This document shows, in pieces, positions 15,001 to 21,000 of a stretch of 64,000 nt of DNA. Numbering within the stretch: the stretch's first letter is position 1; the number at the start of each line of letters is the position of its first letter. Made by a program: the position numbers. The stretch is from the NCBI RefSeq assembly GCF_056712565.1, contig NZ_CM160072.1; one strand, given 5' to 3'.

Positions 15001-18000
15001 TCCTTTTTAACCGCTCCGCCACTGTTAATGATCATTGCCGGGATCTTCCTCTGTAAACTGTGTGCCGTGCTGGCGAGTAGTGGTTCTGGCGCGCCCGGTG
15101 GTGTCTTTACACCGACGCTATTTATCGGTCTTGCCATTGGCATGTTGTATGGTCGTAGCCTGGGATTATGGTTACCTGATGGCGAAGAAATTACGCTTTT
15201 ACTCGGATTGACAGGGATGGCGACACTGTTGGCGGCGACCACGCACGCGCCGATTATGTCGACGTTGATGATATGTGAAATGACCGGGGAGTATCAGCTA
15301 CTCCCCGGTTTATTGATTGCCTGCGTAATTGCGTCGGTAATTTCGCGGACGTTACACCGTGACTCTATCTACCGCCAGCACACTGCGAAGCATAGCTAAG
15401 CGGATGTATTGCCCCAGTTCACGCTGTTCGGCGCGCGGCAGATAAGGCAGTTCACCAATGAGCGGTGCCGGAAGTTTTTTACCGAGCACATCAATGATTT
15501 CCGCATAATGCGCCAGTCCTGGGTTGATTCGGTTAGCCACCCAGCCAATGAGCGGCAGCCCGTCGTTGGCAATCGCCTGAGCTGTTAGCAGTGCATGGTT
15601 AATGCAACCTTCCTGAATACCGACAACCATCAACACCGGCAGTTGTTCCTGCACCACCCATTCAGAGAGCGGACGCAAATCATTCATCAGACTGCGCCAG
15701 CCGCCAGTCCCTTCTACCACGACATGATCGACTTTATCGGTCAGGTTTGCCAGGCCGTTTGAAATGAGGGTGTAATTGATTGGGCAACTGTGCGCCACGC
15801 TACTTTCTTCTTCGCTTAACGCGATAGGATTAACTGCTTCATAAGGCAGTTCGATGGTTGAAACACTCTGCAACACCAGGGCATCTTTATTACGCAGCCC
15901 TTCGGGTGTCTCTTTGCTCCCCTTCGCTACGGGTTTATATCCCGCAACCGTTTTTCCCTGGGAGGCTAACGCTTGTAGCAATGCGCGGGAAACCACCGTT
16001 TTCCCTACAGAAGTGTCTGTACCGGTAATAAAGAAACGCTTCAGCATCACTAACTCCACCGTTATGCTTCACAAATATAAACCAGGAAAATAATTAACCT
16101 TGAAAGTCTAAGTTATGCTTTCCTGGCCCAAATTGAGATAGCGCAAATTTTGGTAGAACAGTTAAAAAATGTTAACCCTGCAACAGACGAATCAACAAAG
16201 AACCGTTATACATCGCGTCTTTTACCAGCGCAGCGCCTGCCATCGTGCCCTGGTTAGAAAACTGAGTACTCTCAACGCTAATGTGCTGACTATACGCAGG
16301 AAGGGCCTGCTGACGGATGCTGTCCGAGATAACTGGGAAGAGGATATCTGCCGCTTTACTTAACGGTGAGCCAATCAGTATTTTTTGTGGGTTAAAAATT
16401 CACCATGATGGCAAGAATGCGACCGACATGCGCGCCTACCCCGGTAATGATGTCTTTTGCCAGTAGATCGCCGCGCAATGCCGCCTGACACAATGAGTCC
16501 ACGGTTAACGGTTGTCCATGTAACATCGAGCTCATGGATTGATTGAGACGCAGCTGTGCCAGCTCAAGAATACTGTCCACACTGGCGATGGTTTCGAGGC
16601 AACCGTGATTCCCGCAATAACAGCGTTTCCCATACGGGTCGACCTGTGTGTGGCCTATTTCCACGAGGCTACTGCTGCCTGCGTGTAGCAGATGACCATC
16701 GGTAATGACGCCCGCCCCCACGTTGTGATCGATAACCACCTGAATCACATCGCGCGCCCCGCGTGAGGCACCAAACAAGGCCTCAGCCATCGTCCATGCG
16801 CTGATATCATGCTGAATATAAACCGGTACGCCGGTATGCTGCTCCAGCGCCTCGCCGAGCGGCATCTCTTTTACATCCTCGTAGAACGGCATGCGATGTA
16901 CAATACCATTTTCCGTATCAATAATTCCCGGCAAGGTTATGGCAATCGAAGTCAGACGCTCAAGTTTTTTCTGGTGGCGGATAAAAAACTGATCGATATG
17001 GGAAATGATACGATCCAGCAATGGCGAGTCATCTTTTAACGCCAGTTCCTGCGACTCCTCCACTACCAGTTTGCTGCTCAGATCGCGCAAAGCAAGGAAA
17101 ATCTCCCCGCGACTAATGCGCAGAGAAAGATAGTGCCAGGCTTCAGTTTCAACCACCAGCCCCACTGCCGGACGGCCACGGTTCCCCGCTTCTTTGATTT
17201 CCAGCTCTTGCACCAGGTGTGCTTCGAGCATCTCACGGACAATTTTAGTGATACTGGCAGGAGCCAGTTGCGCCAGACGGGAAAGATCGATACGCGAGAC
17301 TGGACCAAGCTGATCAATCAGGCGATAAACCGCGCCCGCGTTGGTCTGCTTTATTTGATCAATGTGCCCAGGCTGATTTTCAGCAACCACCGCATACTCC
17401 CTATATTTTCGCGCTCCGAAATAATCTGTAGGCTATGGTGAAGCACTTCAATACGTGTCGTCAAATTTTTACTTAGGCATGTGATTAACAGCACATTTTT
17501 CGGGCTTTTTCGCTGAAATTTCCCTCACCTGAGAGCATTCAGCAGATGAATACGAAAGTTACGCGCAGCCGGACTTTGTTCATGATGTTTCGGCCAGACC
17601 AACCACATTTCAGAAACCGCATCCTCTTCAGCAATCGGCACCCAGCGCATTTCGTTGAGCTGAACACGTTTAAATGACGCAGGCAAAATTGAAACACCCA
17701 GACCAGCGGAAACCAGACCGATGATGGTCATTGCCTCACCCACCTCCTGAGTGATGACGGGCGTCAAATTGTAACGTCTCATCAGCCCGAGAATATCGTC
17801 ATACAGCCCTGTTCCGACGTGCGGATCAAAAAAGACAAAGGGTTCTTTCGCCAGTTCAGCCAGCGTTACACTCGGGTTATTTGCCAGGGGATGATCGTGC
17901 GGGATCATCGCCATAAGCGGTTCATGGACGATGACTGCGTGTTCAAGCGTCTCCGGTAACGCTGTGTTACGCAGCAATCCCATATCCAGCGTTCCTTCAA

Positions 18001-21000
18001 TGAGCGGAGCGATTTGCTCGCGAGTGTTCATTTCGCGGGTTTGTAAATGGACATCGGGATAATCACGGCGAAACAGCGATAACGTATCGGACACCGCCCG
18101 AATAAAAGGAGCGGACGAAGTAAAACCAATGCGCAACTCCCCCGCTTCGCCCTGATGCAGCCTTTCAGCGCGAGCGGCAGCATCATCCACCATAGACAGG
18201 ATTTGCCGACTATCTACAAGAAACTGTTTTCCTGCTTCCGTCAGCAATACACTGCGATTGGTCCGTGCCAGCAGTCGGGCACCAATTTGTTGCTCCAGCG
18301 CCTGAATCTGCTGACTTAGCGGTGGTTGCGAAATATTCAGGCGGGCAGCGGCACGCCCGAAATGCAGCTCTTCTGCAACAGCGACAAAGTAACGCAGATG
18401 ACGAAGTTCAAGATTCATATTTAAAACATCTTATTTGAGATTATTAATATATTAGACAGAACAATTCGATTTTCCTAATCTATTCATAAGCCTGATCCAC
18501 AGGCATATTTAGCAAGGATTTCAAGTGAGCCGTACTACAACTGTTGATGGCGCTCCGGCAAGCGACACTGACAAGCAAAGCATTTCTCAGTCAAATCAAT
18601 TTATTAAACGCGGTACGCCGCAATTTATGCGCGTCACCCTGGCGCTTTTCTCTGCCGGACTGGCAACTTTCGCACTTCTCTATTGTGTGCAACCTATCCT
18701 TCCGGTGCTTTCACAAGAGTTTGGCTTAACGCCCGCGAACAGTAGTATTTCACTGTCCATTTCAACGGCGATGTTGGCTATCGGTTTGCTGTTTACTGGC
18801 CCGCTATCCGATGCCATTGGTCGCAAACCAGTGATGGTCACGGCGCTACTGTTGGCCTCCATTTGTACGTTACTTTCGACAATGATGACCAGCTGGCACG
18901 GCATTTTGATTATGCGCGCCTTGATTGGGCTTTCGTTAAGTGGCGTGGCAGCCGTTGGCATGACTTATCTTAGCGAGGAAATCCACCCCAGTTTCGTGGC
19001 CTTTTCAATGGGGTTGTATATCAGCGGCAACTCAATTGGCGGCATGAGCGGACGCTTAATTAGCGGTGTCTTCACGGACTTTTTTAACTGGCGAATTGCT
19101 CTGGCGGCAATCGGTTGTTTCGCGTTGGCCTCGGCGTTGATGTTCTGGAAAATCCTCCCTGAATCACGCCATTTTCGCCCGACTTCGCTGCGCCCTAAGA
19201 CGTTATTCATCAACTTTCGTCTGCACTGGCGTGACCGGGGATTACCGTTATTGTTCGCAGAAGGCTTTTTGCTGATGGGGTCGTTCGTCACGCTGTTTAA
19301 TTACATCGGCTATAGGTTGATGCTTTCCCCCTGGCATGTCAGTCAGGCCGTGGTTGGCTTATTATCGCTGGCTTATTTGACCGGTACATGGAGCTCACCC
19401 AAAGCCGGAACCATGACCACCCGCTATGGACGCGGTCCGGTGATGTTGTTTTCGACGGGGGTTATGCTGTTTGGTTTACTGATGACCTTATTCAGCTCGC
19501 TGTGGCTGATCTTTGCCGGAATGTTACTCTTCTCAGCCGGATTCTTCGCAGCCCACTCCGTTGCCAGCAGCTGGATCGGCCCCCGCGCAAAACGCGCTAA
19601 AGGCCAGGCCTCCTCGCTGTATCTGTTCAGTTACTATCTGGGGTCGAGTATTGCCGGGACGCTGGGTGGTGTTTTCTGGCATAACTATGGCTGGAACGGC
19701 GTCGGCGCATTTATTGCTCTGATGCTGGTCATTGCTCTGCTGGTCGGGACGCGTTTGCATCATCGTCTGCACGCCTGAAAAAATAAGTCCGGACTGAGGT
19801 AAATACCCGTCCGGACTTATTGCCTGCTCAAACCAACGTTAATAGCCATCCTAAAATAGACGAAGCGCCAGCCAATTCCCGCAGCGCATCTAGCGTCATC
19901 AGGATTATAAGTACCCAAATAAACGGATTCATTTTGCTGTGTGTCATTTATTACTGATGCGCAGTTATTCTACCGCTTTGTAAGTAGTAAAATAGTTAAC
20001 ACGATCAAGACTACTATTATTGGTAGCTAAATTTTCCTTAAGTCACAATACGTTATTATCAACGCTGTAATTTATTCAGCGTTTGTACATATCGTTACAC
20101 GCTGAAACCAACCACTCACGGAAGTCTGCCATTCCCAGGGATATAGTTATTTCAACGGCCCCGCAGTGGGGTTAAATGAAAAAACAAATTGAGGGTATGA
20201 CAATGAAAAAAGTATTAGCTCTGGTTGTTGCCGCTGCTATGGGTCTGTCTTCTGCTGCCTTTGCTGCAGAGACTGCGACCACACCTGCTCCGACTGCGAC
20301 GACCACCAAAGCAGCGCCTGCGAAAACCACACATCATAAAAAACAGCATAAAGCAGCACCTGCCCAGAAAGCGCAGGCGGCTAAAAAGCATCATAAAAAT
20401 GCCAAAGCTGAACAGAAAGCTCCTGAACAAAAAGCGCAGGCAGCGAAGAAACACGCCAAGAAACACAGCCATCAGCAACCGGCAAAACCTGCTGCACAAC
20501 CCGCAGCGTAAGTTTTCAACAGTAATGCTGGCGCGCCCCCTCGCGCCTGAAAATTACGGTGCTAAGCGGGTAACGTTTAGCACCGCCTTTAGCGGAGGGT
20601 AGTATGGTGGGCCGTTATCGCTTTGAGTTCATTCTTATCATCCTTATTTTATGCGCACTGATTGCCGCCCGTTTTTATCTTTCCTGATCGTAGTTATCTG
20701 ATTTTACTCCCACTTTCATCCCGTCCCGTCTATAGTATTTATGAGGGTTTGCTTTTAATAATCATAATTACCCACCAGAGTGTGATATGCGTACAACCAT
20801 TGCTGTAGTGTTGGGTGCAATTAGTTTGACGTCTGCTTTTGTGTTTGCAGATAAACCAGACGTTGCCAAATCGGCAAACGATGAGGTCAGCACCCTGTTT
20901 TTTGGTCATGATGATCGTGTGCCAGTGAATGACACGACCCAATCACCGTGGGATGCGGTTGGCCAACTGGAAACGGCCAGCGGCAATTTATGTACGGCGA

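Follow-up and report, generated by a model that had tools for sequence, protein, structure and literature searches.

Within a 64,000-nucleotide stretch of contig NZ_CM160072.1 (NCBI RefSeq assembly GCF_056712565.1; hereafter the window), the divergent genes ynfL and ynfM flank a shared regulatory spacer of exactly 106 bp (18419–18524), a feature given no strand. On the minus strand, ynfL (husR; 17525–18418) is an open reading frame (ORF) with an ATG start that codes for a transcriptional regulator of the LysR type (LTTR) with 297 amino acids, in which Pfam recognizes the domains PF00126 HTH_1 (residues 5–64, E 2e-24, 85.5 bits against a cutoff of 26.6) and PF03466 LysR_substrate (residues 88–296, E 1e-48, 165.8 bits against a cutoff of 28). 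On the plus strand, ynfM (18525–19778) starts with GTG and encodes a transporter of 417 amino acids from the major facilitator superfamily (MFS; PF07690 MFS_1, E 1e-42, 146 bits) that is classified as TCDB 2.A.1.36.1 (PMC10971958) and shares 99.8% identity with the YnfM that RefSeq lists for locus L001; of the 12 helices expected, 8 could be resolved in a crude scan of hydropathy. A preliminary description of the pair, made from the DNA alone, was right about the coordinates and gene identities, which the ORFs, Pfam and the RefSeq annotation all bear out.

The ynfL-ynfM pair is a known, annotated module of Escherichia coli, for which the link between regulator and target is experimentally established and the substrate class has been demonstrated in E. 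coli. A megablast comparison with complete E. coli genomes showed 100% identity between the 2.5-kb region and several chromosomes, including that of ATCC 11775, where the genes are annotated as “ynfL: LysR family transcriptional regulator” and “ynfM: MFS transporter” and have mlc and asr as flanking genes. Of the 5426 complete genomes, 5420 contain at least 80% of the region; in the same collection, region 17400–19900 also had matches in four plasmid records and no match in 4 of the 5426 genomes. We gathered 80 loci with close YnfM relatives, one genome per species, 78 of which had enough upstream DNA. A YnfL orthologue (74–95% identity) lies divergently upstream of ynfM in all 78 of these other Enterobacteriaceae loci, with a spacer of 92–220 bp. 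Few E. coli LysR regulators besides YnfL still lack a known ligand, and the three roles that the literature assigns to the module, namely a DNA-damage regulon, a dicarboxylate exporter and a copper importer, are incompatible with each other.

The preliminary description had placed a LysR regulator beside its own divergent target, an arrangement that is backed by published chromatin immunoprecipitation with exonuclease treatment (ChIP-exo), genomic systematic evolution of ligands by exponential enrichment (gSELEX), gel shifts and quantitative reverse transcription PCR (RT-qPCR). A ChIP-exo survey from 2021 found one YnfL site genome-wide, in the ynfL/ynfM spacer at coordinate 1667694 (PMC8464067). 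In the old MG1655 numbering, where ynfM occupies 1667723–1668976 (PMC3429515), this site lies 29 bp upstream of the ynfM start, which corresponds to about position 18496 of the window; the 1976-bp shift between the old MG1655 numbering and the current record was cross-checked on three other published ChIP-exo peaks. In January 2026, YnfL was renamed HusR on the basis of a study that reported nine gSELEX peaks and positive gel shifts with seven probes, YnfL binding to the ynfL/ynfM spacer in both assays, more than fivefold YnfL-dependent expression of ynfM, rusA, ypaB, nrdAB and xapA by RT-qPCR in stationary phase only, positive autoregulation, with ynfL transcripts likewise raised by YnfL in stationary phase, and hydroxyurea and nitrogen-starvation phenotypes of the deletion mutant (PMC12844172). 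Expression of ynfM is also strongly raised on pyruvate relative to acetate, and a ynfM-lacZ fusion in Salmonella is activated by sigma-S. Control of ynfM by PdhR had been proposed and was then refuted by chromatin immunoprecipitation, which found no PdhR at the ynfM promoter region (PMC3265435).

A search for a T-N11-A LysR box, suggested for the spacer in the preliminary description, is uninformative on its own, since the bare motif occurs at chance frequency (3890 matches across the window, where 3975 would be expected). As such a search has no discriminating power, it was replaced by phylogenetic footprinting, for which the 78 distinct Enterobacteriaceae spacers were aligned. The alignment revealed a near-invariant, AT-rich block of 29 bp (ATTTGAGATTATTAATATATTAGACAGAA, 18433–18461, no strand), a candidate YnfL operator that overlaps predicted promoter elements. 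All columns of the block are at least 90% conserved and 18445–18457 is 100% invariant. For comparison, 87 four-fold degenerate sites in invariant ynfM codons of the same genomes, used as a neutral yardstick, have a mean majority fraction of 0.58, and only 1.1% of them reach 0.90. A 25-mer of the block occurs a single time in the window even when up to 3 mismatches are allowed.

Both candidate T-N11-A dyads lie in or next to this block and, like it, have no strand. Dyad 1 (TTATTTGAGATTA, 18431–18443) has 4 of 6 symmetric pairs, with paired positions that are 90–100% conserved and an unpaired position, 18432, that varies. Dyad 2 (TATTAATATATTA, 18442–18454), also with 4 of 6 pairs, has positions conserved at 97–100% and contains a perfect palindrome of 10 bp, read directly from the sequence (TAATATATTA, 18445–18454). 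The two dyads are one helical turn (11 bp) apart. A more distant orthologous pair (L087), likewise divergent and with 65% and 55% protein identity for YnfM and YnfL, respectively, retains the core TTAATATATTAGACA and the 17-bp promoter spacing to a −10-like hexamer, TATCCT; in the register of dyad 1 it has TCATTTCCAATGA, which with 5 of 6 pairs is more symmetric than the version in the window.

With a relaxed custom scan, candidate promoters for both genes were predicted across the block. The ynfM promoter would read TAGACA-17-TAATCT on the plus strand, with a −35 element (18453–18458, 5 of 6 matches) conserved at 99–100% and a weak −10 element (18476–18481) that was picked from the scan and from comparison with K-12, where it is TACCCT; most genera have TACYCT. 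In this −10-like hexamer the T, A, C and T at positions 1, 2, 5 and 6 are 100% invariant. On the minus strand, the ynfL promoter would read TAGGAA-17-TAATAT (18477–18472 and 18454–18449), its putative −10 element (18449–18454, 100% conserved) overlapping the ynfM −35 and its putative −35 element (18472–18477, 63–100% conserved per column) overlapping the ynfM −10. The two promoters, taken as pattern matches, would thus overlap face to face, and because these weak promoters overlap the block, one bound tetramer could control both genes.

The remainder of the spacer comprises a second short conserved block (18471–18481), an unconserved, indel-rich stretch (18482–18513) and a Shine-Dalgarno sequence AAGGA on the plus strand (18514–18518, 85–100% conserved), 6 nt 5′ of the ynfM GTG, a start codon that is conserved as GTG or TTG in the 78 genomes. 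In some Citrobacter and Pluralibacter (L008, L009, L015, L017, L074) the spacer measures 158–220 bp instead of the usual ~106–122 bp, and the surplus DNA lies 3′ of the −10-like hexamer and 5′ of the ribosome-binding site, in the stretch that is not conserved. K-12 and the window are identical over 18419–18477; the five substitutions in the spacer all fall in 18478–18498 and include the −10-like hexamer. They create a strain-specific inverted repeat, AGATTATTAATAT / ATTTTCCTAATCT (18438–18450 and 18469–18481). An Rfam scan of 17300–20200 at E ≤ 1 returned no RNA family. A Mlc/NagC-type operator within the block, considered since mlc is a neighbour, was rejected by eye as its half-sites mismatch.

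The conserved block is not where the HusR study placed the recognition sequence. There, YnfL is described as a regulator with multiple targets among the genes for DNA-precursor supply and for repair (rusA, nrdAB, xapA, iraD and others) that acts through a 16-bp box, CnGnnnAnnTnnnCnG, with ynfM as one member of the regulon, and the gSELEX peaks, the seven gel-shift probes, the five strongly YnfL-dependent targets and the deletion phenotypes all speak for such a role. For the ynfL/ynfM locus the box is listed as CAGCCTATCCTTCCGG (PMC12844172); the two sequences tabulated for this locus are reverse complements of one site. In K-12 this site (CAGCC...) lies 166–181 nt inside ynfM, and in the window it reads CAACCTATCCTTCCGG (18690–18705, no strand), spanning ynfM codons 56–61 with one mismatch at a consensus position, a synonymous G-to-A change. 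Among the 78 genomes the box encodes the invariant peptide QPILPV, all variable bases are synonymous, and the two consensus positions that are free of coding constraint drift: 20 of the 78 have A at G3, and 60 have C at T10. With only six fixed bases, the degenerate consensus is found 19 times in the 64-kb window (15 ± 4 expected) and not at all within the spacer (18419–18524). Constraint beyond coding is therefore not seen in these 78 genomes, and the intragenic box is not supported by the alignment as a YnfL operator.

Position-weight matrices of the spacer block found no credible match in the K-12 rusA, nrdA and xapA regions, a negative that is weak because a near-invariant block makes for a very strict matrix. 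Further, protein was in large molar excess over DNA in the gel shifts (7.5–60 pmol on 0.2 pmol DNA), and in vivo the ChIP-exo data show a single site, in the spacer. Taken together, the drift of the box, its chance frequency, the lack of a counterpart of the block at rusA, nrdA and xapA, and the single ChIP-exo site favour YnfL as a local regulator with the spacer block as its operator. A role of YnfL as a multi-target regulator acting through the 16-bp box appears unlikely to us, although weaker binding elsewhere is compatible with these data.

What YnfL may sense was approached through its relatives. In an NCBIfam equivalog search all named LTTR models stayed below their cutoffs (AlsR NF045775 at 264.3 bits against 430), and the best neighbours were AlsR, HcaR, GltC, CidR, BenM and CatM. 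All six of these are regulators that respond to organic acids. A search for homologous proteins returned only unnamed “LysR family” orthologues and no functional lead. The closest solved relatives are ItcR (E 1.3e-58, full length), BenM (1e-43), RipR (8e-31) and also CatM. The RipR residues that hold the carboxylates of the ligand, T98/A99/S100, E127 and R148 (PMC9637912), align with T100/S101/S102, E129 and R150 of YnfL, such that the carboxylate-anchoring Ser and Arg are kept. A carboxylate is suggested as effector because the sensors nearest to YnfL in the effector domain are those of itaconate, isocitrate and muconate (ItcR, RipR and BenM), with the Thr/Ser/Ser, Glu and Arg retained. From this we infer that the effector is probably a carboxylate shaped differently from itaconate or isocitrate. 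Such an effector would fit a target that exports C5 dicarboxylates, the induction in stationary phase and the induction on pyruvate.

The preliminary description had regarded both effector and substrate as not established. For the effector this stands, as none is reported for YnfL in the literature that we found, whereas the substrate part has been overtaken by work published in 2025. In carbon-starved E. coli BL21, glutarate rose inside the cells and disappeared from the outside only when ynfM was deleted, and export was sensitive to carbonyl cyanide m-chlorophenylhydrazone (CCCP) (PMC12622518). Deletion of ynfM also lowered the export of D-2-hydroxyglutarate by 46% (PMC12297413).

A different substrate was put forward in April 2026 for the Salmonella orthologue STM1486, which was described as the copper importer CuiT with an mRNA that is repressed by copper (PMC13101709). 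If this holds for the window, the adjacent LysR regulator would tune expression of ynfM to copper status. The transporter encoded at the S. enterica locus (L070) shares 90% identity over 417 amino acids with that of the window and has the same divergent YnfL. Cells lacking STM1486 accumulate less copper, take it up more slowly and express copper-responsive genes at a lower level, over-expression increases the copper content of the cells, and cuiT mRNA drops on copper exposure. The evidence does not include a transport assay with purified protein, however, and the copper effects could be indirect, via export of a copper-chelating organic acid; efflux of organic anions is what was seen in E. coli, and YnfL falls in a carboxylate-sensing clade.

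A scan for relatives of YnfM across 1.84 billion cluster representatives, run in full, yielded 619 clusters at E ≤ 1e-30, and 101 full-length members with 32–65% identity were aligned. Q56, G172, R177 and W390 are invariant in this alignment, and R131, E152, H344, N259, Y148, Y366 and Y371 are conserved in at least 94% (H344 in 94%). By contrast, the methionines proposed as copper ligands (M104, M146, M162, M174, M251 and M314) are only 49–81% conserved and are swapped for Ile, Leu or Val in 19–51% of the members, while R177, R131 and H344 are kept in 94–100%. This pattern agrees with an anion-binding cavity no less than with a metal site, and it is not decisive. On balance we think it quite unlikely that direct copper import is the main function of YnfM.

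An older view treats YnfM as a low-specificity efflux pump for drugs or sugars, with YnfL answering to xenobiotics. The TCDB family is named “acriflavin-sensitivity (YnfM)” with arabinose as substrate (PMC10971958), ynfM deletion raises the signal of an intracellular arabinose reporter (PMC3429515), and a 2024 screen names ynfM among the transporters that affect anthocyanin secretion. The arabinose effect is, however, common to eight unrelated pumps and was left unconfirmed by over-expression because ynfM is toxic (PMC3429515); YnfM reached the cutoff of no NCBIfam drug-efflux model, and the husR deletion has no acriflavine phenotype (PMC12844172). We regard this view as very improbable.

Structural relatives and distant homologues of YnfM add some observations of their own. 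A phmmer search of YnfM against the PDB found no MFS structure and no close solved relative. It returned only transcription activator-like (TAL) effector repeats, with E-values of 1e-9 to 1e-5, via residues 43–72 (window ~18651–18740), a short low-complexity stretch rich in LTP and A-S; this likeness is almost certainly a compositional artefact. Among six more distant YnfM homologues, four have no adjacent LysR gene, one belongs to the true orthologous pair described above (L087) and one lies beside an unrelated, split LTTR. The loss of LysR pairing in four of the six suggests that the ynfL-ynfM module is confined to Enterobacterales-like lineages. The split LTTR (L094, 1463–2381), divergent from a 46%-identical YnfM homologue and broken into two ORFs by an apparent frameshift, is only 30% identical to YnfL and represents a different regulator in a LysR-MFS pairing. 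A 48%-identical homologue without a LysR gene (P0125; L088, 2501–3778) sits on a 509-kb contig among dapF, cyaY, hemC and a gene for an S-adenosylmethionine-dependent (SAM) methyltransferase, and this contig looks like a reduced endosymbiont genome. Buchnera retains ynfM among very few transporters while it needs to dispose of succinate and fumarate (PMC3246468).

The interpretation that we favour, with a probability of roughly 55%, is that YnfL is a carboxylate-sensing local LTTR that acts at the conserved block 18431–18461 and switches on YnfM as a dicarboxylate overflow exporter. Here, ynfL would encode a local LysR-type activator and ynfM, its divergent target, an MFS transporter that exports C5 dicarboxylates and is coupled to protons. 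The YnfL operator would consist of the 18433–18461 block plus the adjoining dyad from 18431, rather than the GC-flanked intragenic HusR box. The effector would most likely be a carboxylic or dicarboxylic acid that builds up as cells enter stationary phase or in the course of overflow metabolism, and the module as a whole would act as an organic-acid overflow valve. Binding, activation and export have been demonstrated by others, and it is the operator position, the promoters and the class of effector that are inferred here from sequence.

Several points weigh against this interpretation. The ChIP-exo coordinate (~18496), which is given as a single position with identical start and end, falls 35–60 bp downstream of the block, and the conservation of the block may partly reflect promoter elements or another factor than YnfL. 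The promoter assignments themselves are pattern matches at only 7–8 of 12 positions, and a stock sigma-70 and terminator scan of 18300–18650 gave nothing at threshold, a negative that would fit an activator-dependent ynfM promoter. Repression would be the more usual effect of a site located at the ynfL start or shortly downstream of it, yet the HusR paper reports positive autoregulation. On the side of the ligand pocket formed by regulatory subdomain II (RD-II), YnfL differs from RipR in having V201, T203, G227 and A229, so that the ligand would not be itaconate or isocitrate by simple transfer. Finally, the report of copper import by the 90%-identical Salmonella orthologue conflicts with a role as exporter only.

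A more specific version can be formulated in which YnfL senses an endogenous or host-derived C4–C6 di- or tricarboxylate (for instance glutarate, 2-hydroxyglutarate, or a compound similar to 2-oxoglutarate or itaconate) and opens the YnfM valve via the 18433–18461 operator, the HusR box and direct copper import being misassigned and the copper phenotype being secondary to the export of a metal-binding acid. We offer it tentatively, as a possible but doubtful account. Placement of the operator at the spacer block together with tests of organic acids as effectors would decide the primary role of the module, and could supply the production of C5 dicarboxylates with a ready-made cassette of biosensor and exporter.

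Beyond the pair itself, an ORF of 39 codons annotated as “KPN_01571 family protein” lies on the minus strand at about 19828–19947 (5429–5548 of L001), 50 nt 3′ of ynfM and on the opposite strand. It is called a “hypothetical protein” in the type strain, and the corresponding part of the MG1655 stretch that was compared carries no listed feature.

The most direct point of reference is E. coli K-12, in which ynfL (b1595, HusR) and ynfM (b1596) are the same genes in the same arrangement and of the same lengths. Apart from the identical stretch 18419–18477, K-12 differs by the five spacer substitutions (18478–18498), with TACCCT where the window has TAATCT, and by the one synonymous change in the HusR box. 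The YnfM of Corynebacterium glutamicum belongs to the same named family and is cited as an exporter of dicarboxylates that serves in the production of succinate and glutarate (PMC12622518, PMC12297413); its genomic context is reported to be divergent and without a conserved LysR neighbour (PMC13101709). With regard to architecture, YfiE-EamB is similar in that a local LTTR binds the spacer beside the gene of a metabolite exporter (YfiE/eamB; PMC8464067), but in this and other E. coli pairs of an LTTR and a divergent exporter the transporter family and substrate class differ from those of YnfM.

With regard to ligand, the best full-length solved matches to YnfL are the itaconate/isocitrate-responsive LTTRs ItcR from Yersinia (PDB 7W06–7W08) and RipR from Salmonella (PDB 7V5V/7XRO), which have the T/S/S loop, the Glu and the Arg in common with it. 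Their targets are operons for itaconate degradation instead of a transporter, and in the RD-II part of the pocket the RipR residues I200, L202, P226 and I228 are replaced in YnfL by V, T, G and A, so that the ligand is probably a different acid. BenM and CatM from Acinetobacter, which respond to muconate and benzoate, fall in the same LTTR subgroup as YnfL (E 1e-43). They recognize ATAC-N7-GTAT sites, and the divergent-promoter architecture with dyads of the T-N11-A type along the spacer is the likeness to YnfL. In comparison with these two, the YnfL block is far more AT-rich and its candidate dyads, 11 bp apart rather than ~21 bp, would overlap both promoters.

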